Part shown: positions 5,809 through 59,596 of the stretch, one piece after another
Position numbering within the stretch: position 1 is the stretch's first letter
How the letters are laid out: the number at the start of each line of letters is the position of its first letter
NCBI GenBank assembly: GCA_021818475.1
Contig: JAKADZ010000002.1
Span: 64,536 to 128,535, forward strand
From: Nanobdellota archaeon
Lineage (GTDB): Archaea; Nanobdellota; Nanobdellia; Pacearchaeales; GW2011-AR1
Direction: 5' to 3'
DNA: 64,000 nt
The notes under the pieces: generated by a model
Databases searched by the model: none
Seen by the model: only the letters and a program-made list of their open reading frames with translations
What the model was told of the DNA's origin: nothing
Made by a program: the position numbers and the translations under genes

Positions 5809-6897
5809 ATGCCAATGTCTAAGGACGAACTTGAAGAAGTTCTAAATGAACTTGAAAGCCACAAAGGAAGGCACACAGAACTGATTTCAGTTTACATTTC
5901 TGCAGGTTATGATGCAAATTCTGTGCAGAAGCAGCTGGAAGAAGAAAAATCTACTGCAAAGAATATCAAATCTACGACGACAAGAAATAATGTGATGGAT
6001 GCTCTTGATAAAATTATAAGGTATCTGAAAGGAATGAAAAGAACTCCGGATAACGGGCTTGCTTTGTTTGCAGGAAATATTTCAAAAGTTGAGGGGCAGA
6101 TGGATATGCAGTTGTGGATTATAGAACCGCCGATGCCTTTGAAAATAAGACTTTACAGATGTGATAAAGATTTTGTTCTTGAACCTCTCCAGGAACAATT
6201 GGAAGTTTCTGAAGTTTTCGGACTTTTGGTAATGGACAGGAAAGAAGCGACTATCGGATTGCTCGAGGGAAAAAGAATTGAGGTTATGCAGAAAATGACT
6301 TCCGGAGTTCCCAGCAAAATAAGAGCAGGAGGACAAAGTTCTCAAAGATTCCATAGAATTACAGAAGGACTGACAAAAGAATTTTACAAAAGAATTGCAG
6401 AAGAAATGAAAAAAATATTTTATGAAATGCCAAAGTTGAAAGGAATAATTGTCGGCGGACCAATTCCCACAAAAGATGAATTTCTCGACGGGGAATATCT
6501 TGCTACAAAACTTCAGGAAAAAGTTATAGGCAGAGTTGATATCGGAGGAAGTGATGAATCAGGACTGAAAGAACTTGTTGAAAAATCAAGAGATTTGCTT
6601 GCAGGACAGGAAATTATTCACGAAAAAAAAGTCTTGGAAAAATTCTTCGAAACTCTCGGAGAAAAACCAGACTTAGCTGCTTACAAACTTGAAGATGTAA
6701 AAAAAGCGCTCGAATACGGAGCAGTTGATACTTTGATAATTTCAAAAGAATATGACAAGCAGACTGCTCATGAACTTGTCGCGCTTGCAAAAGCAATTGA
6801 CTCAAACATTGAAATAGTTTCAACAGAAACAACAGAAGGCGAACAGTTCCTAAATCTTTCAGGAATCGGAGCTGTACTGAGATTTAAAGTTATGTAA
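5809..6897 (+). CDS. prf1: peptide chain release factor aRF1
   Basis: 362 aa with the NIKS motif (TAKNIKS) and GGQ motif (AGGQSSQRF). ATG at 5809; an alternative ATG lies at 5815. Confidence 0.93.
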   Translation: MPMSKDELEEVLNELESHKGRHTELISVYISAGYDANSVQKQLEEEKSTAKNIKSTTTRNNVMDALDKIIRYLKGMKRTPDNGLALFAGNISKVEGQMDMQLWIIEPPMPLKIRLYRCDKDFVLEPLQEQLEVSEVFGLLVMDRKEATIGLLEGKRIEVMQKMTSGVPSKIRAGGQSSQRFHRITEGLTKEFYKRIAEEMKKIFYEMPKLKGIIVGGPIPTKDEFLDGEYLATKLQEKVIGRVDIGGSDESGLKELVEKSRDLLAGQEIIHEKKVLEKFFETLGEKPDLAAYKLEDVKKALEYGAVDTLIISKEYDKQTAHELVALAKAIDSNIEIVSTETTEGEQFLNLSGIGAVLRFKVM

Positions 6898-8259: not shown

Positions 8260-9492
8260 ATGAAACTTTTGCCGATAATATATCTGATATACATGTTTTT
8301 CTCAATTTATTTTCTCTCGCTTTTCTTTATACTTTATGCGAAGAATAAAAAAAATTTATTCAATTACCCCGTAGCCAAAAAAGAATATACCGTTTCATTT
8401 GTCGTTCCGGCATATAATGAAGGGGAAACGATAAAAGATACGATAGAGCATATTTTTGCGGTGGATTACAAAAAAATTGAACAGGTAATAATAGTAAATG
8501 ATTGTTCAACTGACAACACAAAAGAAGTAGTGGAAGAGATGCAAAAAAAATATCCCAAATTAATTTTGATAAATAATGAAAAAAATCTCGGAAATGCAGC
8601 ACGTTCGAAAAATGTCGGGTTAAAACATGCAACAGGAGAACTCATTGCATTTGTCGATGCAGATAGTTATCCTGCAAAAGATTCTTTAAAAAAAATGATT
8701 GGTTTCTTTAATGATGAAAAAGTCGGGGCAGTAACCTGTCCGATTTTAGTGCGGGGAGGGAAGACATTTATTGAGAGACTTCAGGCAATAGAGTATAAAA
8801 TGATTGCATTTACAAGAAAACTTTTGGATTATGTAGATGCAATTTATGTGACTCCCGGACCTTTGGCAATTTACCGGAGGGAAGCAATAGAACAGGTCAA
8901 TGGTTTTGACGGGAACAATATGACTGAAGATATTGAAATCACGTGGAATTTAACTGCAAAAAATTGGGAAAGAAGAATGTGCCTGGCGACAGAAGTCACA
9001 ACAACAGCCCCGAATAAGTTCAAAGATTGGTATAAACAAAGAAGGAGATGGAGTATCGGGGGAGTTCAATGTGTTGCAAAATATAAAAAAGATTTTTTAA
9101 AAAAAGGGATGTTGGGAATGTTTGTTCTTCCGTTTTTTGTCGTCCAGTTTTTCCTCGGTCTTTTAGGGCTTTTAGTATTTTTTTATTTGCTTGCAACAGA
9201 CATAATTTCAAACTATCTTCTTCTGGGGTATTCCATACCCGCGGGAGTTCCGCTCTTAACAATTGACAGTTTATTTATCACTCCAACATTCTTGGATTAT
9301 CTGGGAGTAATACTTTTTATTGTGGGATTCGCATTCACAATGTTTGCATTGTCGATAATGAAAAAAAATGCATTGGAAAAGCAAAGTTTCTTCAGCCTGA
9401 TGTTTTTCTCTGTAGTTTACCTTTCAGTCTATCCTTTTATTACATTAAGTGGAGTATACAATTATTTTAAAGGGGGAAATAAATGGAGATAA
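8260..9492 (+). CDS. family 2 glycosyltransferase, membrane-integrated (processive-type)
   Basis: 410 aa. FVVPAYNE, DCSTDNT and VDADS (DxD) motifs plus the Q-R-R-R-W motif (KQRRRWSIGG). TM helices at both the N- and C-termini. Confidence 0.85.
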   Translation: MKLLPIIYLIYMFFSIYFLSLFFILYAKNKKNLFNYPVAKKEYTVSFVVPAYNEGETIKDTIEHIFAVDYKKIEQVIIVNDCSTDNTKEVVEEMQKKYPKLILINNEKNLGNAARSKNVGLKHATGELIAFVDADSYPAKDSLKKMIGFFNDEKVGAVTCPILVRGGKTFIERLQAIEYKMIAFTRKLLDYVDAIYVTPGPLAIYRREAIEQVNGFDGNNMTEDIEITWNLTAKNWERRMCLATEVTTTAPNKFKDWYKQRRRWSIGGVQCVAKYKKDFLKKGMLGMFVLPFFVVQFFLGLLGLLVFFYLLATDIISNYLLLGYSIPAGVPLLTIDSLFITPTFLDYLGVILFIVGFAFTMFALSIMKKNALEKQSFFSLMFFSVVYLSVYPFITLSGVYNYFKGGNKWR

Positions 9493-10196: not shown

Positions 10197-10970
10197 ATGG
10201 CAGAATGTTTTAAATGCGGTGTTTCTGGTGAAAAAAGCAGGTTGCATGATGTTATCTCAAACAGAGGAATAGTGAAAATTTGCGATGAATGCGCCTCTTC
10301 TGAAAACTTGCCAACAGTCAAAAGAATTACAAAAGAACAGCTTGAAGAATCCCAGAAACAGAGGTCAATACGGGACAGGCTGACAAATATGAATAATCGA
10401 AATAGTATTCTGAAAAAAGAAGTTACATTAAGAGATATAATTGACAAAAATTTAAAGAAAAATCAGCCTCCTTCAGATTTAATTGAAAATTTTCACTGGA
10501 CGATTCAGAGAATTAAAAGAGCGAGAAAAATAACAAGGGAAGAATTTGCAAAAGCAATAGGAGAAAATGAAGCAACAATAAGAATGATTGAAAATGGATT
10601 TATCCCGAATAATGATTACAAACTGATAAACAAAATTGAAAGTTATCTAAAAGTTAGTCTAAGAAAATCAGGGGAGTCTGGATTTTCTGACCCTTCAATT
10701 AAAGAACCTTCAAGGAGATATATTCTTGACAACTCTCTTATTGAAAAAGAAGAACAAAAACCGAAGAAACTAAGTTTTAGCATTCCCGCAGCAAAAGAAC
10801 TGAAAATCAGCGATTTGAAAGAGATGAAAAAAAGGCAGGATACAGAATCCAAAAGACCTGAATCAAAGAAAGAACCAATAGACAGCTGGGAAAATGAATA
10901 CAGCCAGGATGATGAAAAATTCCTTGATGAACGTGAAGAATTCGATGATGACGATTTTGATGAGAAATAA
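10197..10970 (+). CDS. zinc-ribbon + XRE/MBF1-like helix-turn-helix protein with acidic tail
   Basis: N-terminal CFKCG...CDEC ribbon. HTH segment IKRARKITREEFAKAIGENEATIRMIENG. C-terminus EREEFDDDDFDEK. First ATG is at 10197; the track ORF starts at TTG 10191. Confidence 0.65.
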   Translation: MAECFKCGVSGEKSRLHDVISNRGIVKICDECASSENLPTVKRITKEQLEESQKQRSIRDRLTNMNNRNSILKKEVTLRDIIDKNLKKNQPPSDLIENFHWTIQRIKRARKITREEFAKAIGENEATIRMIENGFIPNNDYKLINKIESYLKVSLRKSGESGFSDPSIKEPSRRYILDNSLIEKEEQKPKKLSFSIPAAKELKISDLKEMKKRQDTESKRPESKKEPIDSWENEYSQDDEKFLDEREEFDDDDFDEK

Positions 10971-11019
10971 AACCCAACCGTTTTTGTTGAAAAAATCAAT
11001 TTTGTTTTTACAAATATTT

Positions 11020-11060
11020 GCGGACAGCGAAGCTGTCCAAGGGCGGGAGGGCAGGGGATA
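11020..11060 (+). repeat. repeat-family fragment: GAA-loop hairpin + G-quadruplex motif
   Basis: ggacagc-gaa-gctgtcc at 11022-11038, followed by gggcgggagggcagggg at 11041-11057. Confidence 0.7.
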
Positions 11061-11113
11061 AAAAACAAAATTGTAATAAGAGGATATTTTCAGCAAAAAT
11101 AACCCAATCGCAA

Positions 11114-11127
11114 CTTTTATAAATATA
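11114..11127 (+). promoter_or_regulatory. TATA-box-like element upstream of rpoL
   Basis: cttttataaatata lies 18-31 nt upstream of the ATG at 11145. Confidence 0.4.
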
Positions 11128-11144
11128 GTTTTAGATTTCTTTTT

Positions 11145-11408
11145 ATGGAAATGAATATTCTTAAGAATGAAAAGGAAGAACTTGAATTAGAAACAGACAG
11201 CCTGACAATTGCAGAAATTTTGAGAGTTTATCTTAACAAAGATTCTGACGTAACTTTCGCTGCATGGAAAAGAGAACATCCGACAAAAAAAACCACACTT
11301 CTTGTAAAGACAAAAGGCAAAACTGCAAAAAAAGCTATTGATGATGCAGTTTCTGCAATAACAAAAGACCTTGACAGAGTAGAAGCAGATTTCAAGAAAT
11401 TGAAGTAA
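11145..11408 (+). CDS. rpoL: DNA-directed RNA polymerase subunit L (Rpo11)
   Basis: 87 aa. LELETDSLTIAEILRVYLNKDSDVTFAAWKREHPTKKTTLLVKTKGKTAKKAIDDA matches the RpoL/Rpb11 pattern (V-x-F-A-x-Y/W-x-x-x-H-P). Confidence 0.8.
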   Translation: MEMNILKNEKEELELETDSLTIAEILRVYLNKDSDVTFAAWKREHPTKKTTLLVKTKGKTAKKAIDDAVSAITKDLDRVEADFKKLK

Positions 11409-27559: not shown

Positions 27560-28204
27560 TTATATTTCCTCTTCCAACTTCTTAATTTTCATCCAGACTT
27601 TTTCAAACTTAGTGTTGGACTCATCAACGATTATTTTTAAAAAATTATCATCGACCAAAAGTTTTCCATCCTGAATTATTGGAAGTTCAATTTTTTCGCT
27701 TGCATTAAGTTCAACAATAAAATTTTTTTTAAGTTCAATAATTCCTGATTTTTTCCATCCCGCTAATTTTCCTTTTTCATAAATTTTTTCAGCATCTTCA
27801 AGTGTTTTGCATGCAATATGGAGAATGCACGGTTCGAATTTGAATTTAATATTTTTAATTCCCTTTTGGGTGGGCGAGCGATTTCGCGAAGGAAAGGTCA
27901 GTGACGAGTGAGCAGGGTCACGAGTTGGGTGGGAACTGGTTATAGAAATCAATTTTCCCAATTCATCTTTCAGTTCCTTAAATGAAATTTTATCGTGGGA
28001 AACAAAAACAAATAAGTTCTCTGCCTTTTTATCCTGGTCAATCATAAGTAAAACTCTTCCTGAACATGAAGAAGTGGTGTAATAATTTTCTAGAGAATTT
28101 ATCTTGTCGCATAAAGAAGAAATTTTCTCATCCCATTTTCCAATTGAAGATTTATCTTCTTTTGAGAGAATATCCTTTTTTCTCTGATTAAAATTGTCTT
28201 TCAT
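27560..28204 (-). CDS. taw3: tRNA wyosine-derivative methyltransferase Taw3/TYW3-like, carrying an in-frame repeat insertion
   Basis: NYYTTSSCSGRVLLM motif of the TYW3 family and ...FEPCILHIACKTLEDAEKIYEKGKLAGWKKSGI. Start placed at ATG 28204 (MKDNFNQRKK); the track ORF extends to 28297. Insert peptide is SHPTRDPAHSSLTFPSRNRSPTQKG. Confidence 0.75.
   Translation of the reverse strand: MKDNFNQRKKDILSKEDKSSIGKWDEKISSLCDKINSLENYYTTSSCSGRVLLMIDQDKKAENLFVFVSHDKISFKELKDELGKLISITSSHPTRDPAHSSLTFPSRNRSPTQKGIKNIKFKFEPCILHIACKTLEDAEKIYEKGKLAGWKKSGIIELKKNFIVELNASEKIELPIIQDGKLLVDDNFLKIIVDESNTKFEKVWMKIKKLEEEI
27862..27938 (+). repeat. GC-rich E module of the repeat family located inside the Taw3-like CDS
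   Basis: ccttttgggtgggcgagcgatttcgcgaaggaaaggtcagtgacgagtgagcagggtcacgagttgggtgggaact. ttgggtggg occurs at both ends (27866-27874 and 27925-27933). Confidence 0.9.
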
Positions 28205-28295
28205 AACAGAAAAATGAAAATGAAGGTTAATAAATTTATCAAGTCCTTTTTGAAGTAGAGTGTAACCAGTTGAACAAAGTTTACTTCTTAATTTC

Positions 28296-28435
28296 AATCA
28301 ATCCAAAAAATTCTGAAAGAATTTTTTGCTCTCTTTCTTTTTTGAGTAGGCAAGCGATTTCGCTAATAGAAATTAATTTCCCTTCGGGTGGGAGGGCGGG
28401 GATTAATGAGCGGGGTCGCGAATTGGGGGGAATTA
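28296..28435 (+). repeat. modular intergenic repeat, copy (D hairpin variant + E module with G-quadruplex motif)
   Basis: caaaaaattc-tgaaa-gaattttttg at 28304-28328. gtaggcaagcgatttcgct... gggtgggagggcgggg at 28386-28401. aatgagcggggtcgcgaattgggggg. Confidence 0.85.
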
Positions 28436-30329: not shown

Positions 30330-32498
30330 TTATCTTTTCCTTTTCATTTCCCTTCTAATCTTCCTCTTATTTTTTCTTATTTCTTTTCTCTGCTTTCTAC
30401 TTAGTCCATTCTTAGCTCTTCTGTTATGAATAACTCTGATTAAAACAATTGCAAAAATTCCTGTTAAAATTGTTCCTATTAAGAATTTGAACTGTCCTGA
30501 TTTGTAAAATGAAACTGTGCATTTCCCATTGTCGCATGTGTCTGAGCAGTGGTCTGTTACAAGCCATGTTGCATTTCCTAAACATAATTGAACATTATTG
30601 TCCGCGCATCTTGCAGAATTTGGAAGGCAGTCATATTTGTTGAAGAAAATTGCGAAAGTCGAAAATCCAGGAGTTGAAGATTTGAAGTAATAAGCGTTGT
30701 CATCTTCGCCTGTATAATTTGTAATTAAAGGCGCCCAGCTTGAAGTTCCTGTCGGCATTCTGTAAACTGCAATATTTCCGACGATATCATTTTGCAAGAG
30801 CCAGTATCTGTTCGCTTTATGATGAAAAGTGATATTATTTTCTGCAAGGAAAGTTTTGTTTATTTTGAAATCTAAAGTTGCATTTAAAATGTCATTATAT
30901 TGAATTCCTAATGGTTCAATCTGAAATAACTGATACAATTTCCCTATAGGTAATCCGAATAATAAAAATTCAGTCTGGTCAACTTTAGTAATATTCATTG
31001 ATGCATTTTCAACAGACTTTTTCAGAATTAAAGTTATTCCTGTCAAATCCATTTTTGTATTATTTAATGTTATCTGAACAGGTTCTGAAGGAGCTACATT
31101 CATAATAGGTTTTGAAATTGTAACGCTTCCTCCACCGCCACCCCCACTCGGAGATTGAGGCGGAGCTACATGCCCCCCAGTAGAACAAGTTTGGGTTTCT
31201 GCAGGCTTGCCTGCAGTTGTTCCACAAGCATTTGCGTCAGTGCATGTTCTTGTTTGAATTCCTCCAGAACAATCTGACCAAGCAGAACAACCCCACGATT
31301 CAAAGCAGGGGTTTTGCAGGCTGATATTTGAAGCATTTAACTGATAAATGGTATCTCCTCCAAACATAATATTAAGTACTCCCGCATAAACATATCCTCC
31401 CCCAATAGAGATAGAGTTTCCATGACCTGTAGTGGTGTAATTTGCGATTTGCTGTGAAACATTTGAAGCATTTAACTGATAAATTTCATATGGGCCATTA
31501 TCACTACTAAAATAAACGTAGCCGTTTGAAACTGCTGGAGAAGAAGTTGAAAAACCGCTAATATTTGCGATTTGCTGTGAAACATTTGAAGCATTTAACT
31601 GATAAAAGTCATTGTAGTCTCCAATGTAAACGTAGCCGTTTGAAACTGCGGGGGAATAACTCAGACTGGCTCCAGAAGAATAATTTGCGATTTGCTGTGA
31701 AACATTTGAAGCATTTAACTGATAAAGATTATCTGCCCCTACATAAACGTAGCCGTTTGAAACTGCTGGAGAAGAAGGAACAGTATAAAGAGGTATCAAA
31801 TAATTTGCGATTTGCTGTGAAACATTTGAAGCATTTAACTGATAAATTATATATTTTACTGCTCCCTTAAGAGAACTAGAGACAGTAAAATAAACATAGC
31901 CGTTTGAAACTGCTGGAGAAGAAAATGTTTTTCCCCCAGTTGAAAAACTATTTACCATTTGTGAGATATTTGAAGCATTTAACTGATAAAAATTAAAATT
32001 AACAGAATCTCCAACATAAACATAGCCGTTTGAAACTGCTGGAGAATCAAAAGTATCAATTCCCCCAGAATAATTTGCGATTTGCTGTGAAACATTTGAA
32101 GCATTTAACTGATAAAGACCGTTAGAACCAAAGTATAAAAAACCATTTGCAATAACCGGAGAGGAGGAACATACAGCAGAATAATTTGCGATTTGCTGTG
32201 AAACATTTGAAGCATTTAACTGATAAAGATTATCTGCCCCTACATAAACGTAGCCGTTTGAAATTATAGATGGAGAAGGTATACTTGCTAAGGGATTAAA
32301 GGGAGTAGTAAAATTTGCATTGTTTAAATTAGGAATTACTGTAAAATTCTGCCCATCCCAAAAACTATGACCTAAAGTTCTTCCAAACATTAACCATTCA
32401 CTTGTCGAAGAAGAATCTGAACCCTGACTGGAAATAAATAAAATTAAAAATAATAAACATAATGCAAAAATAAAAAAAATAATCCCCTCTTTTTTCAT
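30330..32498 (-). CDS. large surface protein with ~10 PQQ-like beta-propeller repeats, one Cys-repeat module, C-terminal TM and basic tail
   Basis: 722 aa with a signal peptide. Repeats are of the form SPAVSNGYVYVG...YQLNASNVSQQIANYS. Also CFESWGCSAWSDCSGGIQTRTCTDANACGT, a Gly-rich linker, a TM helix and RRAKNGLSRKQRKEIRKNKRKIRREMKRKR. Confidence 0.8.
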   Translation of the reverse strand: MKKEGIIFFIFALCLLFLILFISSQGSDSSSTSEWLMFGRTLGHSFWDGQNFTVIPNLNNANFTTPFNPLASIPSPSIISNGYVYVGADNLYQLNASNVSQQIANYSAVCSSSPVIANGFLYFGSNGLYQLNASNVSQQIANYSGGIDTFDSPAVSNGYVYVGDSVNFNFYQLNASNISQMVNSFSTGGKTFSSPAVSNGYVYFTVSSSLKGAVKYIIYQLNASNVSQQIANYLIPLYTVPSSPAVSNGYVYVGADNLYQLNASNVSQQIANYSSGASLSYSPAVSNGYVYIGDYNDFYQLNASNVSQQIANISGFSTSSPAVSNGYVYFSSDNGPYEIYQLNASNVSQQIANYTTTGHGNSISIGGGYVYAGVLNIMFGGDTIYQLNASNISLQNPCFESWGCSAWSDCSGGIQTRTCTDANACGTTAGKPAETQTCSTGGHVAPPQSPSGGGGGGSVTISKPIMNVAPSEPVQITLNNTKMDLTGITLILKKSVENASMNITKVDQTEFLLFGLPIGKLYQLFQIEPLGIQYNDILNATLDFKINKTFLAENNITFHHKANRYWLLQNDIVGNIAVYRMPTGTSSWAPLITNYTGEDDNAYYFKSSTPGFSTFAIFFNKYDCLPNSARCADNNVQLCLGNATWLVTDHCSDTCDNGKCTVSFYKSGQFKFLIGTILTGIFAIVLIRVIHNRRAKNGLSRKQRKEIRKNKRKIRREMKRKR
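31321..32270. repeat. array of near-identical intragenic repeats (44-nt perfect core, 6 full + 2 partial copies)
   Basis: atttgcgatttgctgtgaaacatttgaagcatttaactgataaa occurs at 31440, 31563, 31683, 31803, 32073 and 32184. Partial copies lie at 31324 and 31957. Confidence 0.95.
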
Positions 32499-33564: not shown

Positions 33565-34947
33565 TTATTCTCCTTTTCGACGACTTCCTGCCGTCGGGTT
33601 GCTGGAGTTGGGAAGAACCCGCTGGAGGTTAACCTTTTCAAAGCTTCTTGCAATCTGAAATAATTTTTGTTCGTTTAATTTTTCACAGATAATCTGCATT
33701 CCTATGGGGATTTTATCAATTTCCCCCGCAGGTATGCTGATAGCACAGTCCCCTGATAAATTAATGGGGGAAGTTAATGCATCATATTGGAACATTTCCT
33801 CAATTGAAATTTTCTCTCCGATTTTATGGGGAAGCCTTGGAACAGTCGGGCAGATTAAACAATCAAACTTCCTGAAAGTTTTTTTGAATTCTTCCTCAAT
33901 TAACTTCCTTGCTTTCAGAGCAAGATGATAATATCTTCCTGCATGTTCTGCCTTGCTTATTTCACTTCCACCCAAAATTCTTCTCAAAACTTCAGGTCCG
34001 CATGCTTCTTCAATTTTTTTCCCGAATCTTCTGCCATCAAGTCTTCTTGTACATGAAAAAAATTCAGTATAAACAATTGGAAAATAAGTTGCAACAGCAA
34101 AATCGATGTATTCTAATTTTATTTTTTCCGATTTCCACTTATATTTTTTAACAGTTTCCTCAATTTTTTTGTCAATTAAATTCTGAATTCGCAGGTCATT
34201 TATTTTAAAATCCAAAATTCCTATTTTAATATCTCGCGGAACTTCTTCAACTTCTTTGAGATTAATATTACTGCCCAAACTAATTGCATCTTTTTCATCT
34301 TTTCCTTTGATAATATCGAATAAAAGTGCGGCATCAGAAACATTTTTTGCAATCGGCCCGACCTGATCTAAACTCATGCTCATGTCAATTAAACCGTATC
34401 TTGAAACACTCCCGTAGCTTGGTTTTAATCCTACAACTCCGCAATGAGATGCAGGAACTCTTATGCTTCCGCCGGTATCGCTTCCTAAGGACATATCGCA
34501 AAAATCTGCAGAAACACTCGCGCAGCTTCCGGATGAACTTCCTCCCGCAACTAGTCCTAATGATTTTGGATTATTCGTCGCACCAAACGCAGAAGTTTCT
34601 CCGCTCCAGCCGCATGCAAATTCATCGCAGTTTGCCATTCCGATAATTAATCCGTCTTCCTCTTTTATTTTTTTTATAACTTCTGCATCGTAAGGAGATT
34701 TATAATTTTCCAAAACTTTGCTTCCGCATGATGCATGCAATCCAAGAACATTTATGTTAGCTTTAACAGCAATTATTTTTCCTGCAAGTTTTCCCGCTTT
34801 CTTTTTCTTGATTTTCTCATCAATCAGCTTCGCTTCTTCCATCGCATTAGGATTTATCTCAAGAATTGCATTTATTCTGTTTCCGCTTTTATTATGCATT
34901 TCAATCTGATTCAAGTATGTTTGAAGTCGTTCTTGTGTCGTTACCAT
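33565..34947 (-). CDS. gatA: Asp/Glu-tRNA amidotransferase subunit A
   Basis: 460 aa with the amidase signature (GGSSSGSCASV, ANCDEFACG, GSDTGGSIRVPAS). Confidence 0.92.
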   Translation of the reverse strand: MVTTQERLQTYLNQIEMHNKSGNRINAILEINPNAMEEAKLIDEKIKKKKAGKLAGKIIAVKANINVLGLHASCGSKVLENYKSPYDAEVIKKIKEEDGLIIGMANCDEFACGWSGETSAFGATNNPKSLGLVAGGSSSGSCASVSADFCDMSLGSDTGGSIRVPASHCGVVGLKPSYGSVSRYGLIDMSMSLDQVGPIAKNVSDAALLFDIIKGKDEKDAISLGSNINLKEVEEVPRDIKIGILDFKINDLRIQNLIDKKIEETVKKYKWKSEKIKLEYIDFAVATYFPIVYTEFFSCTRRLDGRRFGKKIEEACGPEVLRRILGGSEISKAEHAGRYYHLALKARKLIEEEFKKTFRKFDCLICPTVPRLPHKIGEKISIEEMFQYDALTSPINLSGDCAISIPAGEIDKIPIGMQIICEKLNEQKLFQIARSFEKVNLQRVLPNSSNPTAGSRRKGE

Positions 34948-35312
34948 TTCTTTTTCTCCGCAATTATAAAATCTTTATTTGCTTCTGGTGCATTTTCAAA
35001 CATTATTCTCTTGTCAAGTTCGCAGATTTTTGAAGTTTCGCGAATAGAATTATTTCCCCGTTGGGTGGGCGAGCGATTTCGCGAAGTTGAGGTCAGTGTT
35101 ATGTGAGCGGGGTCGGGAGTTGGGTGGGAATTAATGAGCGAAACAGAATTTTCTTCCCTTTCAAATTTTTCCCGTTCAATTGAATTATCAACTTCAATCT
35201 TTTGTTTAATCTGAGAAAGTTTCTTGGAGAAAGAATCAATTATAGAATCAACCTGTTTCTTTACTTCTTCCTTTTCTTTATCAGACATTTGTCGCCATAA
35301 AAAATCATCCAT
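34941..35312 (-). CDS. gatC: GatC-like amidotransferase subunit C carrying an in-frame repeat insertion
   Basis: Overlaps the gatA start by 7 nt. The C-terminus ...RIMFENAPEANKDFIIAEKK resembles the GatC L-x-N-A-P...F-x-V-P tail. Insert peptide is SHPTPDPAHITLTSTSRNRSPTQRG. Confidence 0.55.
   Translation of the reverse strand: MDDFLWRQMSDKEKEEVKKQVDSIIDSFSKKLSQIKQKIEVDNSIEREKFEREENSVSLINSHPTPDPAHITLTSTSRNRSPTQRGNNSIRETSKICELDKRIMFENAPEANKDFIIAEKKKW
35055..35140 (+). repeat. GC-rich E module of the repeat family located inside the GatC-like CDS
   Basis: tccccgttgggtgggcgagcgatttcgcgaagttgaggtcagtgttatgtgagcggggtcgggagttgggtgggaattaatgagcg. ttgggtggg occurs at 35061-35069 and 35120-35128, the same 59-nt spacing as in the Taw3 copy. 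Confidence 0.9.
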
Positions 35313-42857: not shown

Positions 42858-44219
42858 ATGGTAAAAATAGGATTGGAAATTCATGGTTATATAAACACAG
42901 GTGAAAAACTTTTCTGCAGATGCAAAACAGTTCATGGGTTAAAATTTTCAGAACCAAATACAAATATCTGCCCGATTTGCACAGGACAACCTGGAGCGAA
43001 GCCGATGCTTCCGAATAAATCAGCAATTGACAAATCAATTCAGATAGGCCTTATATTAAACTGCAAGATAAATCCAAAATTAATCTGGCAAAGGAAACAT
43101 TATGACTGGCCTGACCTTCCAAAAGGATACCAAAATACAATTTCAGGAGCTCATGCAAAAACTACGGGAGAAAACGGAGAGTTTATGGGAATAAAAATAA
43201 GGGAGATTCATCTTGAAGAAGACCCCGCCGCATGGAATCCAAAAACAGGGGAAATAGATTACAACCGTTCTGGTTCACCATTAATTGAAATTGTAACAGA
43301 GCCCGATTTCTCTTCGGCGGAACAGGTAATTGACTGGCTTAAACAATTAGTCTTAACTTTAAGTTATATAAAAGTATTTGATAAAAAATCAGGGATAAAA
43401 GCAGATGTGAATATTTCTCTTCCTGAATTAAAGGGAGAAAGAGTCGAAGTAAAAAATATCAATTCACTGAAAAATATCAAAACTGCAATAGAGTTCGAGA
43501 TAAGCAGACAAAAAACAGATGTTCCAAAGGTTCAGGAAACAAGAATGTTTGATGAATCAAAAGGAGCAACATTAAAAATGCGAAGCAAAGAACAGGCAGA
43601 AGATTACAGATTCATTTCAGATCCGGATTTGCCTGCAATAATAATTGAAAAATCAAGAGTAGAAAAAATAAAATCTGCAATTCCTGAAACCCCTCAGGAA
43701 AAACTAAAAAAGCTGATTAAAAAATATAACATTGAAAAAAAATATGCCGAGATTCTTACTAAAAAAATTGATATTGCAGAATTTTTCGAAAAAATTATTG
43801 AGAAAGCAAACCCTAAGATTGCATCACAGTGGACAACAATTGAACTTCTTAGCGTTTTGAATTACAACAAAAAAGAATTTGAAGATGTTGAAATTTCTCC
43901 CGAGCATTTCATTGAACTTTTGAAATTAATTGAAAATAAAAAAATTACAGAATTAAAAGCAAAAGAAATTCTAAGAAGCTGGAAAGAAAAATCTTCATCT
44001 CCTGCAAAAGAAGCAGAAAGCAGTTCAAAAATTTCTTCAGAAGGAGAAATTGAAAAAGTTGCAAAAAAAATAATCAAAGAAAATTCAAATGCAGTAAAAG
44101 ATTTCAGGGCAGGAAAATCAGAATCTTTAAATTTCCTGATAGGAAAAGTCATGCAAAAAACAAATAAGCGCGCAGATTTCAAAACAGCTAGGGAAGTTTT
44201 GGAAAAATTATTAAGATAA
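42858..44219 (+). CDS. gatB: Asp/Glu-tRNA amidotransferase subunit B
   Basis: 453 aa. IGLEIHGYINTGEKLFCRC, PNTNICPICTGQPGAKPMLPN, HYDWPDLPKGYQNT and a YqeY-like tail. Confidence 0.9.
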   Translation: MVKIGLEIHGYINTGEKLFCRCKTVHGLKFSEPNTNICPICTGQPGAKPMLPNKSAIDKSIQIGLILNCKINPKLIWQRKHYDWPDLPKGYQNTISGAHAKTTGENGEFMGIKIREIHLEEDPAAWNPKTGEIDYNRSGSPLIEIVTEPDFSSAEQVIDWLKQLVLTLSYIKVFDKKSGIKADVNISLPELKGERVEVKNINSLKNIKTAIEFEISRQKTDVPKVQETRMFDESKGATLKMRSKEQAEDYRFISDPDLPAIIIEKSRVEKIKSAIPETPQEKLKKLIKKYNIEKKYAEILTKKIDIAEFFEKIIEKANPKIASQWTTIELLSVLNYNKKEFEDVEISPEHFIELLKLIENKKITELKAKEILRSWKEKSSSPAKEAESSSKISSEGEIEKVAKKIIKENSNAVKDFRAGKSESLNFLIGKVMQKTNKRADFKTAREVLEKLLR

Positions 44220-44228
44220 TTTAATATT

Positions 44229-44625
44229 TTATCACCTCTTTTTTATTTAAGAAGTTGGATTTAATCTGTTTTATTTTGTTGGGATTTCATTTGAGTTTTT
44301 TCTCCTTAACAATTTTTCCGGCGTAGCGTCGTGTCTGAAAGCCGACACAAAGCAATCAATAATAAAAAAAGAAAGGATAAAATTTTTCTTCCCTCTTCGG
44401 ATGTGCGAGCGTTTGCACAAGTGATAACTTTCCTCTTGGGGCGGGGGCGGGAAGAAAATTCCCTTGAATATGAGAAACTTCGCGAGTAGAAACATTTTCC
44501 CTTCGGGCGTGAGGGGGGGAATAAATGAGCGAAGTCGCGAATGAAATTCTATTAAATAAATTTACTCCATAAAAAAATATTCCTTTGGGGAGGGCGGGTG
44601 GGAACGGGTAGAATAAGGCAAGAAA
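44229..44625 (+). repeat. largest cluster of the modular repeat (A motif, hairpin module, several E-type GC modules, G-quadruplex motif)
   Basis: ttatcacctctttttt at 44229-44244. gtgtc-tgaaagcc-gacac hairpin. gatgtgcgagcgtttgcac. ggggcgggggcggg at 44438-44451. aatgagcgaagtcgcgaatg. ggggagggcgggtggg at 44587-44602. Confidence 0.85.
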
Positions 44626-53325: not shown

Positions 53326-53485
53326 TTATCGCCTCTTTTTTAAAACATATTTGCAGTTAATTCTAATTAACCAACAGATTTTTCCCTCATTAACAAATTT
53401 TCCCTCGGGGGTGGGCGAGAGTTTTCGCAATGCCAGTAAATTTTTGAATGCATTTGCGAGGGCTCGAGTTGGGCGGGAACAAGTA
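53326..53485 (+). repeat. modular intergenic repeat, copy (A-motif variant, attaacaaatttt module, long E module)
   Basis: ttatcgcctcttttt at 53326-53340. gggggtgggcgagagttttcgcaatg...tttgcgagggctcgagttgggcgggaac at 53407-53480. Confidence 0.8.
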
Positions 53486-57480: not shown

Positions 57481-58233
57481 CTAACTTGCTCTCCTAACTG
57501 CCCTTACCCCGAGAGCGGAAAACTGATTAGAGGGAATCCTGCTGCAAATGAGGCTAACCCACTCGGGATCAGCAACGAACCTAGCGACTGAATTATTATC
57601 GCTTCGCGAATACCAATAATATAAATTTCCTGATTTAATTTTTTTATTTGGAAGTCCTTGTTTTGTATGAGAGTTATCTAAATAATCTTCCAAAGAAATT
57701 CCCGGCTCTTTATCTTTCATTAGAGTATCTCTATCAAGAATGTTTGAACTTCTTGGAACAAGATTTCCATTTGAATCTAAAATATGATTATAATTAATTA
57801 CTAAATCTTTTCCGTTTGTTTTAAAATAAGCATCAATCCATTCTGCTCTCTGAGGATTTCTTACTTCGGTAATTTCTTTGTAAATATCTTGGTGATTTAT
57901 TTTGCAATATTTCAAGAACTCAATAAACTCAGGAAGAATCAACATTCTTTCATTATTTGCCTGAAGAAGTTTATGGCAATCAAACCAATTTTCTCCTAAA
58001 CAAGTTCTTTCTTTTGCAACATAAAGATTTATTGAAGGAACATAAATAAAACGATTATCTTTTTGAAGAGAAGTATGTCTTTCTAATATCTCTTTTACTC
58101 TCTCTTGATTTAATCTTAAACTTGGATCAGAACAAACTTCCTGAATAAATGATAAATCTTCTCCTTGAGATAAGAAATCTCTGATTATCTCTCTTTCTGT
58201 CTGATAAGTTTCAGTTAATTCTTCAGTTTGCAT
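57481..58233 (-). CDS. hypothetical protein (250 aa) with a GC-rich 3' end
   Basis: Clean ORF with no motif recognised. The last ~40 codons (57481-57610) are visibly GC-richer than the rest. Confidence 0.5.
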   Translation of the reverse strand: MQTEELTETYQTEREIIRDFLSQGEDLSFIQEVCSDPSLRLNQERVKEILERHTSLQKDNRFIYVPSINLYVAKERTCLGENWFDCHKLLQANNERMLILPEFIEFLKYCKINHQDIYKEITEVRNPQRAEWIDAYFKTNGKDLVINYNHILDSNGNLVPRSSNILDRDTLMKDKEPGISLEDYLDNSHTKQGLPNKKIKSGNLYYWYSRSDNNSVARFVADPEWVSLICSRIPSNQFSALGVRAVRRAS

Positions 58234-58360
58234 TCTATTACCTGATTAATCTTATTTAAAAAACTTTCTAATGTAACTTCTTAAAAGTTATAACAATAAA
58301 GAGGTTATTAATAACTTTTTTAGATTAACAAAATTTTCAATAATATCAAAAAAAGGGTAA

Positions 58361-58391
58361 CTTTTTCCCTCAGGGTGGGCGGGTGGGACTG
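58361..58391 (+). repeat. repeat-family fragment: short E module = G-quadruplex motif
   Basis: ctttttccctcagggtgggcgggtgggactg, with gggtgggcgggtggg at 58373-58387. Confidence 0.75.
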
Positions 58392-58494
58392 ATGAAGGAT
58401 GAAAATTTTCTAGAATTGATGTGCGATTTAACAAATAATAAAAATATAGTTCTACTACAAAAATCTTTTTAAATGGAAATTTTATAGAAATTGT

Positions 58495-58680
58495 ATGAAT
58501 AAATGGATTGAAATTTTGTTTGGATTGATTCTTCTGAACGGAGCAATCTTCACTTGGATGACAAATTTCTGGGCATTAGGTGACGCCGCATTGACTTTCT
58601 TCAAGGGCGGATTGGTTTGGATGGTTATCCTTTTAGGGTTTGTTTTTATCGTTCTTGGAATTAGCGACCTTAAAGATTAA
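58495..58680 (+). CDS. small membrane protein (61 aa, 2 TM)
   Basis: IEILFGLILLNGAIFTW and LVWMVILLGFVFIVLGI hydrophobic helices. Confidence 0.5.
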   Translation: MNKWIEILFGLILLNGAIFTWMTNFWALGDAALTFFKGGLVWMVILLGFVFIVLGISDLKD

Positions 58681-58682
58681 TC

Positions 58683-58992
58683 AGGCTTAACCAAAAAGGA
58701 AAACGGGTTAGATTATTTTAGTTAGTTCAAACACAAATTCAGGAAAGTTTAAACAAAAATTTAAGGAATTTCTTTATTAACAAATTTCCAAACAGAGCGC
58801 CTTGACGAATGTCTGGCGCGAAGCAATCAACATCAAAATTTCAGGGAAATTTTTAAGAAAGGATTAGGTTGTCTTCAACAGGCTTGACCACACTTTCAAG
58901 GGGAAAATGTGTGCGAGCGATTTCGCGGAAGTGAGGCCAGTGATATGCAAGCGAGGTCGCGAGTTGAGAAAACCGATTAGGTTGTCTTCAAC
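58683..58992 (+). repeat. modular intergenic repeat cluster (GC hairpin module, D hairpin variant, gattaggt module twice, long E module)
   Basis: agagcgccttgacgaatgtctggcgcgaagc. aaaatttc-agg-gaaatttt at 58835-58853. gattaggttgtcttcaac at 58862-58879 and again at 58975-58992. gtgtgcgagcgatttcgcggaagtgaggccagtgatatgcaagcgaggtcgcgagttgag. Confidence 0.85.
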
Positions 58993-59596
58993 TTAATAAA
59001 GCAATTAATGTCCCTTCAATAATTCCGGCAACAAGAAGAAGAGGGATTATTATTAACAGAAATACTTTTAGTGATTTTATCATATAATCTCTGAAAGATT
59101 GAAGTTTCTTTTTCTGGAATATGAAAGTTCCCATTTTTAACCCCAACCCAAGTGAAATAAAAACTGCGGGCAGTTCAAAAATTCCGTGGGGAAGAATTCT
59201 CCAGAGAGTCAAAAACCCGTCAGCTTTAACGCTTAAAAGTGAGACAAATCCAAGCATATAACCGTTTGCAATTGCACTTATGAGAGGAAAAATTCCCAGG
59301 ATTGTTCCAAAAACAATCACTAATAAAGTACTCTTAAGATTATTTGAAATTATAAACTGAATAAGCTGCATTTGGGACATCCCTGCAGTTTGCTTGACCA
59401 AATCCTGTATGAAAGAAATTATTTTTGTGTAAATAAATTGCGGAGCAGGTATAAAATAAGCAAAAAAAACAAAAAAGAAAAAAATCCCTATTGAAGCATA
59501 AATAAATTTTTTAGATTCTTTAATATACTTCCAGCTGTCTTTGTATTCTTCAGAAAGGCTGAATCCTTTCCTCTTTTTTTTTGTTTTTTTTACCAT
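58988..59596 (-). CDS. SpoIIM/DUF95-family membrane protein
   Basis: 202 aa, multi-TM. ILPHGIFELPAVFISLGLGLKMG is the family signature. Confidence 0.7.
   Translation of the reverse strand: MVKKTKKKRKGFSLSEEYKDSWKYIKESKKFIYASIGIFFFFVFFAYFIPAPQFIYTKIISFIQDLVKQTAGMSQMQLIQFIISNNLKSTLLVIVFGTILGIFPLISAIANGYMLGFVSLLSVKADGFLTLWRILPHGIFELPAVFISLGLGLKMGTFIFQKKKLQSFRDYMIKSLKVFLLIIIPLLLVAGIIEGTLIALLS

Follow-up and report, generated by a model that had tools for sequence, protein, structure and literature searches.

In-frame copies of a dispersed hairpin repeat in the gatC and taw3 genes of a Nanobdellota archaeon

Why should two unrelated genes, gatC upstream of gatA and taw3, which encodes a TYW3 protein, share a stretch of 25 residues in the same genome? 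The question is raised by a 64-kb segment of contig JAKADZ010000002.1 from a Nanobdellota archaeon (hereafter the window), a member of the DPANN group (named after Diapherotrites, Parvarchaeota, Aenigmarchaeota, Nanoarchaeota and Nanohaloarchaeota). The window is AT-rich (~32% GC) and archaeal in gene content (NAC, aRF1, Nre, TYW3, GatD/GatE, an intron-containing tRNA). Its first-pass annotation attributed the shared segment to a DNA repeat "exonised" in both genes rather than to domain homology, and our analysis supports this view, since relatives of GatC and TYW3 exist without the block. From the sequence comparisons described below, the block in gatC is very likely a translated copy of a dispersed, non-coding, hairpin-forming repeat, and the same would hold for the block in taw3.

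The 123-amino-acid (aa) open reading frame (ORF) interrupted by the block had been described as possessing a GatC-like tail and as overlapping the start of the amidase/GatA ORF by the 7 nt at its 3′ end. Both features are present (the protein ends in ...FENAPEANKDFIIAEKKKW), and homologues, a profile match to Aquifex GatC and synteny agree that the ORF is gatC. A search of 5.8 billion proteins produced 54 homologues, between 77 and 103 aa in length but mostly of 83-85 aa, several of which are named GatC by JGI or have a precomputed PF02686 match. In the alignment the window protein is at most 82% identical to these homologues outside one 38-residue gap, and the family profile matches Aquifex GatC (3h0l_C) over residues 18-87, i.e. 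near full length, with an E-value of 3.6e-4. The Pfam GatC model yields 18.3 bits with the insert, under the cut-off of 23 bits; once the 38 residues are deleted the alignment becomes continuous (10-78 to 2-64/66) and the score reaches 20.9 bits, which is still below the cut-off. All members of the family score weakly against Pfam, insert or no insert, as is typical of a divergent family. The gene order AspRS-x-gatC-gatA is common to the window and the loci L003, L058 and L059. With gatB, recognised through Pfam GatB_N/GatB_Yqey on L001, all three GatCAB genes are thus present, and tblastn revealed no second gatC within the window. Differences from L058 in the parts of gatC flanking the block are distributed 10/8/24 over the three codon positions, a pattern indicating that the gene is still under purifying selection. 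By its sequence the window protein is a divergent GatC; that the insert-bearing form assembles into GatCAB and supports transamidation is a prediction only.

The first-pass annotation had placed the repeat at 35055-35140. A repeat is indeed found there, but its extent was drawn too small: the real insertion covers about 35037-35150, that is 114 nt or 38 aa, and includes the shared module peptide SHPTPDPAHITLTSTSRNRSPTQRG as reported. None of the 54 GatC homologues has the 38-aa block in the protein alignment, and DNA alignments with the gatC loci L003, L004, L058 and L059 show a clean gap of 114 nt. At the closest empty site the sequence is GAAGAA/GGCGGAGAT, and no target-site duplication is visible at the gatC junction in the alignments with these orthologous loci. 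L003 is syntenic over 19 kb, with a gatC of 84 aa, a TYW3 of 187 aa and zero copies of the repeat. In the profile alignment to Aquifex GatC the insert falls directly after the equivalent of MREDE and before NAPE. An AlphaFold2 (AF2) monomer model of GatC shows a helix from residue 3 to 42, with 10-residue block means of the predicted local distance difference test (pLDDT) between 80 and 94, while the insert is coil with pLDDT <50 over residues 55-97. The insert is accordingly modelled as a disordered loop of 38 residues in what would be a tolerant extended linker. The 123-aa protein recurs on 8 contigs assembled from different samples, and L001 and L002 have identical junctions.

The second copy is found in taw3, whose ORF contains, as had been noticed, the module peptide SHPTRDPAHSSLTFPSRNRSPTQKG in its own frame, identical to the GatC peptide at 19 of 25 residues; at the DNA level the match between the two copies extends over 81 nt with 84% identity (E 1e-17). 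The insert of 27 aa is absent from the L003 orthologue and from four solved TYW3 structures, and in the comparison with PDB 2qg3 and 2drv it sits in an unaligned stretch between the two conserved halves that match these structures. It is also present in a second strain from another sample (P0058 on L056, 94% aa identity). Between the two strains 67 of 561 sites differ outside the insert (11.9%), mostly at third positions, and 3 of 81 within it (3.7%); this distribution suggests that the host gene is under purifying selection and that the insert has persisted across strain divergence. The AF2 model of TYW3 is uninformative (2-sequence alignment, mean pLDDT 36.7).

Translation of both copies in the same frame, also pointed out in the first-pass annotation, is true but fails as additional evidence. 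The 114-nt gatC copy is stop-free in one of the six frames and the 81-nt TYW3 copy, with stops in four, is open in two; the genes share a frame because it is the sole minus-strand frame open in both copies. The shared frame is a survivorship filter and no sign of a selected peptide. In line with this, the peptide does not behave as a protein domain, being absent from the GatC homologues, the TYW3 orthologue and the structures, and a profile search (hmmsearch) with it against 1.84 billion (1.84e9) representative proteins returned only this GatC and two chance matches in repetitive bacterial proteins.

Using nhmmer, blastn and a covariance model, we detected at least eight copies of the repeat in the 64 kb, all on the plus strand (Table 1). 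The repeat is nested: a core, M, lies between the two GGGTGGG motifs of a hairpin, F, to which the gatC copy adds an outer, perfect 7-bp inverted repeat. In its general form M consists of C-GA-GCGATTTCGC, a 24-nt loop and GCGRRRTCGC-GA-G(T), and folds into a 10-bp stem that, owing to its G.U pairs, is complete on the plus strand only. Where M is inserted, F in the window lineage reads TTCCC...GGGTGGG before and GGGTGGGAA after the core; the stand-alone F has the form TTTCCC-N4-GGGTGGG-C-GGGTGGGA. The spacers and architecture of the gatC copy resemble those of the copies c28 and c44b, where M-type stems enclose the F hairpin.

Table 1. Positions of the repeat copies, their parts and the host genes in the window
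Feature	Position	Strand	Remarks
gatC block, whole; 114 nt = 38 codons; NSVSLINSHPTPDPAHITLTSTSRNRSPTQRGNNSIRE	about 35037..35150	+ (hairpin, G.U strand); read on -	boundaries uncertain by a few nt
Region EENSVSLINSHPTPDPAHITLTSTSR	within 35037-35150	-	part of the peptide from the gatC block
M core in gatC, 51 nt: C-GA-GCGATTTCGC, 24-nt loop, GCGGGGTCGG-GA-G-T	35070..35120	+	covariance model 73.7 bits
Left half of F in gatC (TTTCCCC-G-TTGGGTGGG)	35053..35069	+	compared with core-less copy 58362-58388
Right half of F in gatC (TTGGGTGGGAA)	35120..35130	+	GGGAA pairs with TTCCC of left half
Outer inverted repeat, left arm GTTTCGC	35035..35041	+	perfect complement of 35138-35144
Outer inverted repeat, right arm GCGAAAC	35138..35144	+	read from sequence
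gatC, divergent DPANN-type GatC, 123 aa	34941..35312	-	carries insert; stop overlaps gatA start by 7 nt (ATGGTAA)
gatA, amidase, 460 aa	33565..34947	-	Pfam Amidase 372 bits; 88% identical to L003 orthologue
gatB	42858..44219	+	Pfam GatB_N/GatB_Yqey on L001
taw3/TYW3, 214 aa from called ATG	27560..28204 (ORF 27560..28297)	-	Pfam TYW3 157 bits
TYW3 insert, 81 nt = 27 codons, F plus M	27858..27938	+	no outer inverted repeat; M core 27875-27925
Intergenic bare M	58911..58972	+	79.3 bits; best match to cross-genome consensus; 96% identical to L006 copy
Intergenic F+M-type copy, compensated stem changes	53413..53477	+	24.9 bits
Intergenic copy, a short way upstream of TYW3; F hairpin within M-type stems	28348..28431	+	24.9 bits
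Intergenic copy, long loop	7315..7403	+	25.9 bits
Two adjacent degenerate copies downstream of gatB	44386..44550 (about 44386-44452; 44468-44550)	+	13.5 bits for 44468-44550
F-only copy (TTTTTCCCTCAGGGTGGG-C-GGGTGGGA)	58362..58388	+	tandem GGGTGGG without core

This architecture accounts for a motif, TTGGGTGGG, that the first-pass annotation had located at both ends of the two intragenic copies (27866/27925 and 35061/35120) at an equal distance of 59 nt. The positions and the spacing are correct, and the two pairs make up four of the five matches in the window, against 0.22 expected from shuffled sequences; a match at 22379 on the minus strand was discarded as a repeat copy, as it is ordinary coding sequence of a 221-aa ORF. 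The motif does not mark the ends of the element, however, but belongs to F and pre-exists without the core. The spacing of 59 nt arises because the 51-nt M splits the tandem GGGTGGG of F (7+1+51). A reading of the pair as a 9-bp target duplication was likewise rejected, since GGGTGGG is in tandem even in the F copy that has no core.

One GatC homologue, P0028 (98 aa), has a different insertion of 14 residues (PLTSSSLTSQTKEK) elsewhere, in the first half of the protein, and going by its sequence GatC may tolerate insertions at more than one site. The 7-nt overlap of gatC and gatA (ATGGTAA, 34941-34947) is found only in the window lineage; L058 (compared at 6253-6270) and L059 have a short spacer between the two genes and another gatA start, which means that the window lost ~8-10 nt there. 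In L003 an extra 123-aa ORF separates gatC from gatA (8925-9296) and a Metallophos gene follows gatA (10609-11334). Both are missing from the window, so that the neighbourhood has been rearranged besides gaining the repeat. The 3′ end of gatA (about 33580-33637, minus strand) carries a discrete GC-rich in-frame insertion of ~58 nt just ahead of the stop codon, which adds 20 residues (NLQRVLPNSSNPTAGSRRKGE) that L058 and L003 do not have. This insertion is not significantly similar to the M/F repeat, occurs just once in the window and constitutes the third in-frame GC-rich insert of the same gene neighbourhood. As for taw3, the window has about five copies of an AT-rich palindromic repeat (AAAAATTTCTGAAAGAAATTTTTGC; at 1199, 21444, 27517, 28298 and 57026), two of which immediately flank the gene, one downstream and one upstream.

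The core M is not private to the window genome. Exact-pattern matches were found in AT-rich contigs of DPANN type, namely L005 (a Nanoarchaeia metagenome-assembled genome, MAG), L006 (a Woesearchaeota MAG), L008, L021, L023/L033, L029, L037 and L045; the real cross-contig matches reach 73-84 bits with the covariance model and have unrelated flanks. We set aside 38 of 46 metagenome pattern matches as chance occurrences in GC-rich bacterial DNA, together with the single match among viral_contigs, in DNA of 66% GC. The copy in L006 shares 96% identity with the one at 58911 of the window, again with unrelated flanks, and lies inside a Pfam-confirmed YhbY/CRM gene which reads it in a different frame (NSRPRLHNTGLTSAKSL); removing the core from this YhbY lengthens the domain alignment. 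An apparent duplication at the YhbY site (8/9 match) is off the junction and AT-rich and was not accepted. Longer ORFs in L008, L021 and L029 have the core close to their 5′ end and read it in the frame used in GatC and TYW3, and further copies occur in the spacer of an Fe-S operon and upstream of a tRNA. L045 has two module copies (450-516 and 554-615) in inverted orientation ~40 nt apart, one of them AT-decayed, an arrangement that recalls the paired layout of repetitive extragenic palindromic (REP) sequences in bacterial interspersed mosaic elements (BIME).

The largest group of coding copies came from a protein search in which the query was a concatenation of peptide variants, biased to two frames; aligned 44-aa peptides gave no match because of a word-index limit. 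About 20 proteins begin M..KK-TRD(P/S/F/L)AR.TLTLLPRNRS-G followed by a hydrophobic helix, and they have at least 7 different mature parts. Three such proteins were located on contigs, all in clusters with a T2SSE ATPase gene and two T2SSF platform genes, a layout typical of DPANN type IV filament loci (bioRxiv 10.64898/2026.04.22.720090). The type IV pilus clusters of L053 and L055 contain two core copies each and that of L054 one, always in the same place before the leader Gly. The module-bearing proteins P0059-P0078 combine a basic leader, Gly at -1, a hydrophobic helix and a T2SSE/T2SSF cluster, and the Pfam Pilin_N match on them is weak (E 0.11); this sequence pattern and the gene context suggest that they are pilin-like. 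The window has no pilin-like gene of this type. Orthologues of the pilin-like genes differ by the module: MVINMNNKKG/WIEIVEAF in L055 corresponds to MVIRMNKK[TRDPARSSLALLPRNRS]G/WIEIVEAF in L053, a clean indel of 51 nt whose flanks are almost the same and show no duplication, and other orthologues have decayed or partly duplicated remnants of the core. Three leaders of L054 (1778-2383, 9237-9995 and 10001-10504) show decayed remnants or partial ones in tandem (AIFLTKNRK twice; PRNRRTRD...PRNRSG plus a second GCGATTTCGCGG arm), and their sequences suggest repeated insertion, duplication and decay at the same spot. Genes for archease and the RNA ligase RtcB follow the module-bearing pilus clusters (L053:10498-12326, L054:10509-13198, L055:13624-16710), a neighbourhood which is probably conserved synteny.

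What is conserved in all these copies? The substitution patterns indicate that the insert is constrained at the level of the nucleotide sequence and not of the peptide. In 11 copies the variable core columns outside the search pattern are spread 7/7/7 over the codon positions, and variation among four orthologous pilin genes is distributed 6/3/4 in the 17 core codons, compared with 2/1/7 in the 12 codons that follow. The arms ACTCGCGAC and CCGCGAAATCGCTCG are invariant in paralogues and lineages, third positions included, and every Arg codon of the core is CGN, though CGN accounts for only 15.6% of the Arg codons in the window genes. The codon opposite the UUU of the stem specifies P, L, S or F, i.e. 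any YYN codon; the hairpin strand has A or G, without exception, at each of the three positions facing UUU, which keeps A-U or G.U pairs. Over the 11 copies 95.9% of the cells in the 10-bp stem are paired and the outermost pair covaries between C-G and U-A. The mean folding energy is -14.6 kcal/mol on the plus strand versus -7.1 on the mRNA-sense (minus) strand. Folding z-scores of single copies are weak (0.11 to -2.1), and the case for a structure therefore rests on the alignment. No Rfam family was found for any copy, either in the whole window at the gathering threshold or in 58100-59100 with E-values up to 10.

The six intragenic copies recovered by the DNA pattern (in gatC, TYW3, YhbY and three pilin-like genes) all lie in genes whose coding strand is opposite to the G.U hairpin strand, and the only intragenic copies found are stop-free and of lengths divisible by 3 (51, 81 and 114 nt). 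The antisense placement is not forced for the bare core, since four of its six frames are stop-free, including two of the three sense-strand frames; the intergenic core copy in the Fe-S operon is in sense orientation. The bias might mean that a stable hairpin is disfavoured in mRNA, or that insertion is strand-specific, but six cases are too few to decide.

Taken together, these observations are best explained by a dispersed repeat that has landed in, and is translated with, the genes in question. The intragenic sites all look tolerant: the GatC linker, the loop between the TYW3 halves, a loop of YhbY and the leader of the pilin-like proteins. We imagine a selfish, non-autonomous element that would spread by means of a strand-specific hairpin, in single-stranded DNA or RNA, recognised by an enzyme encoded elsewhere. 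Selection would then purge those insertions that break the frame, add a stop or put the more stable G.U hairpin into an mRNA. The extra peptide would be without function, and the GatC loop a tolerated passenger.

A number of points weigh against this interpretation. No transposase or other mobilising enzyme was recognised among 20 window ORFs compared with Pfam or in the gene tables of the fetched loci, and none of the junctions, in gatC, the pilin genes or elsewhere, shows a target-site duplication. For the pilin genes, a precise deletion would look the same as an insertion. The core could have a host function, given how strongly its nucleotides are conserved between lineages and how it recurs just before the Gly of the pilin leader. 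Folding of the gatC copy as a single sequence is no better than that of shuffled sequences (z = 0.11), and the covariation is modest, with one double change and 6 of 500 shuffles reaching the observed score; its support is further limited by the left arm having been preset by the search pattern in most DNA copies. Finally, translation of the gatC block is a prediction from its open frame.

The closest precedent appears to be the Rickettsia palindromic elements (RPEs), short palindromic dispersed repeats which are found in frame in unrelated housekeeping genes, are translated and are compatible with the fold of the host protein; the RPE peptide is absent in orthologues, intergenic copies exist as well and no transposase is known (PMC10969869). 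By analogy, the repeat in gatC and taw3 may be called RPE-like, in an archaeon. Both are multi-copy hairpin repeats inserted in frame at fold-tolerant sites of unrelated conserved genes whose orthologues lack the insert. They differ in the host, an alphaproteobacterium rather than a DPANN archaeon, and in size, RPEs being about 100-150 nt as against a 51-nt core of exactly 17 codons here; there is no sequence similarity. The nested architecture (M in F in an outer inverted repeat), the G.U-dependent and strand-asymmetric stem, with the intragenic copies all antisense to the hairpin strand, and the many copies in pilin-like leaders also set our repeat apart. MITEs (miniature transposable elements with inverted repeats) that have intragenic copies are known as ERIC, BOX and Correia/NEMIS, from Anabaena and Coxiella and from the archaea Sulfolobus and Halobacterium, and occasionally give rise to in-frame fusions (PMC10969869). 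They are likewise small, non-autonomous, multi-copy and structured; however, the terminal inverted repeats and target-site duplication that define them were not found at the junctions examined here, nor was a parent insertion sequence (IS) among the 20 window ORFs.

There is also some resemblance to the REP/BIME elements with their REP-associated tyrosine transposases (RAYT) and to the IS200/IS605 family, where imperfect hairpins are recognised in a strand-specific manner, target duplication is lacking and presence or absence is seamless; the 51-nt indel and the uniform plus orientation of the window copies agree with this. REPs are 20-40 nt long with a GTAG or CGTC tag (PMC3733652). They are extragenic, in contrast to our 51-nt unit, which has a CGAG flank (C-GA...GA-G) and a conserved 24-nt loop. 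No Y1 transposase was seen among the 20 window ORFs scanned against Pfam or in the gene tables of the fetched loci, and we regard the similarity as a lead only. In the pilin-like proteins the module encodes the K/R-rich leader ending in RNRS-G ahead of the hydrophobic helix, as in class III (type IV prepilin) signal peptides, but it represents an optional leader insert of 17 codons and not the signal itself. By-eye resemblances to a tRNA T-arm, a kink-turn (K-turn), a C/D-box, an integron attC site and a bulge-helix-bulge (BHB) motif were dropped, as the defining features are lacking.

An alternative that deserves consideration, though we think it rather doubtful, is that the core is a functional nucleic-acid element, such as a hairpin bound by a regulator or an RNA-binding protein, or an antisense or terminator-like RNA, which is at home at the 5′ end of pilin-like genes. 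The copies in gatC and taw3 would then be by-products or under the same control, and such a role would be compatible with mobility. Arms that are invariant even at third codon positions, strand-specific G.U pairing with a covarying outer pair, a TYW3 insert that has changed less than the synonymous sites of the gene around it and the recurrence at a fixed pre-Gly place in the pilus clusters L053, L054 and L055 would all fit. A T-run follows the stem on the hairpin strand in pilin genes, but it could equally correspond to the Lys codons of the signal-peptide N-region. On the other hand, pilin orthologues without the module or with decayed copies imply that it is dispensable there, Rfam offers no match, and the contexts in the Fe-S operon spacer, upstream of the tRNA and in YhbY are unrelated and have no common theme.

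It is unlikely that the insertion inactivated gatC and that the ORF is a pseudogene caught before its decay. Such a fate would agree with a Pfam GatC score below threshold (18.3 versus 23 bits), with the position of the insert between the conserved REDE-like and NAPE motifs and with the additional presence of GatD/GatE. But the family scores weakly against Pfam even without insert, the reading frame is unbroken, and the flanks share ~80% identity with orthologues, their changes being in excess at third positions. Furthermore, gatC is translationally coupled to the highly conserved gatA, and the parallel insert in TYW3 survived 11% DNA divergence in a gene under purifying selection.

We consider it very improbable that the 25 shared residues form a genuine protein module selected for its function in GatC and Taw3. 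The peptides are 76% identical, and many pilin-like leaders use that frame too; against this, the block is missing from the 54 GatC homologues, the TYW3 orthologue and the solved structures, the search of 1.84e9 proteins gave nothing real, third positions show no excess of substitutions, the residue opposite the stem varies between P, L, S and F, YhbY reads the same DNA in another frame, and the loop is predicted to be disordered.

Introns of the BHB type occur in protein-coding genes of archaea (cbf5), and a structured insert inside an archaeal ORF recalls them. Removal of the block from the RNA in an intron-like manner would leave the mature proteins normal, and a GC-rich structured insert, an intron-containing tRNA in the same archaeon and RtcB and archease genes adjoining the pilus clusters could be quoted in its favour. 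Yet splicing requires neither a length of 3n nor the absence of stops, and the intragenic copies all have both in the frame of the host, though the gatC copy has stops in five of six frames; the kept frame and missing stops argue for translation instead. The geometry is not that of a BHB either, because on the mRNA strand C.A mismatches face each other in the stem, as an internal loop of 3x3 or 2x2, and do not form two staggered 3-nt bulges 4 bp apart, and the junction sequences differ among hosts. We therefore give this idea hardly any weight. Chimeric contigs induced by a multi-copy repeat during metagenome assembly are the least credible explanation of all, as 8 contigs of different sample origin encode the same 123-aa protein, L001 and L002 agree in their junctions, the TYW3 insert is found in a diverged strain from another sample and both inserts keep the reading frame.

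Two other types of repeat in the window stand apart from the M/F family. A covariance-model match at 21748-21800 was rejected as a module since it is a duplicated tRNA fragment: the 5′-end sequence (ACCAGGCTGAGCTACGGAGTCAT) of the intron-containing tRNA (gene 21573-21666, minus strand) is repeated at 21746-21768 and partly at 21849-21865. By their sequence these repeats look like attachment-site duplications from integrating elements. Tandem repeats of ~111-144 nt at 31300-32300 lie inside a 722-aa ORF (30330-32498) with faint PQQ-like matches, and are protein repeats rather than mobile DNA.

Returning to the repeat as a translated insertion, its core invites a bolder proposal, which we offer as tentative. 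The 51-nt unit might be a mobile element adapted to life inside the ORFs of genome-reduced DPANN archaea and moved seamlessly by a putative hairpin-recognising enzyme. This idea is based on its length of exactly 17 codons, the absence of stops in four of six frames and a stem that is strong on one strand only, with the consequence that the mRNA of a gene carrying it in antisense stays translatable. Such a core would accumulate in the leader of pilin-like proteins, where the peptide is presumably cleaved off with the leader, and would occasionally colonise loops of essential translation genes (gatC, taw3, yhbY). In a stronger form of the proposal, the conserved hairpin could have been co-opted as a regulatory site common to the pilin genes.

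The translated insertion of palindromic repeats, best documented in Rickettsia, would thus extend to DPANN archaea, whose genomes have almost no intergenic space, so that such repeats may land mainly in coding regions. The gatC and taw3 copies would provide a concrete case of non-coding DNA as a source of new protein loops in essential translation genes. They also hold a warning for annotation, since a weak GatC or TYW3 profile score, or an odd peptide common to two proteins, can be due to repeats of this kind. The conserved 51-nt core in the leaders of pilin-like genes, for its part, could lead to a new mobilisation enzyme or to a regulatory hairpin.

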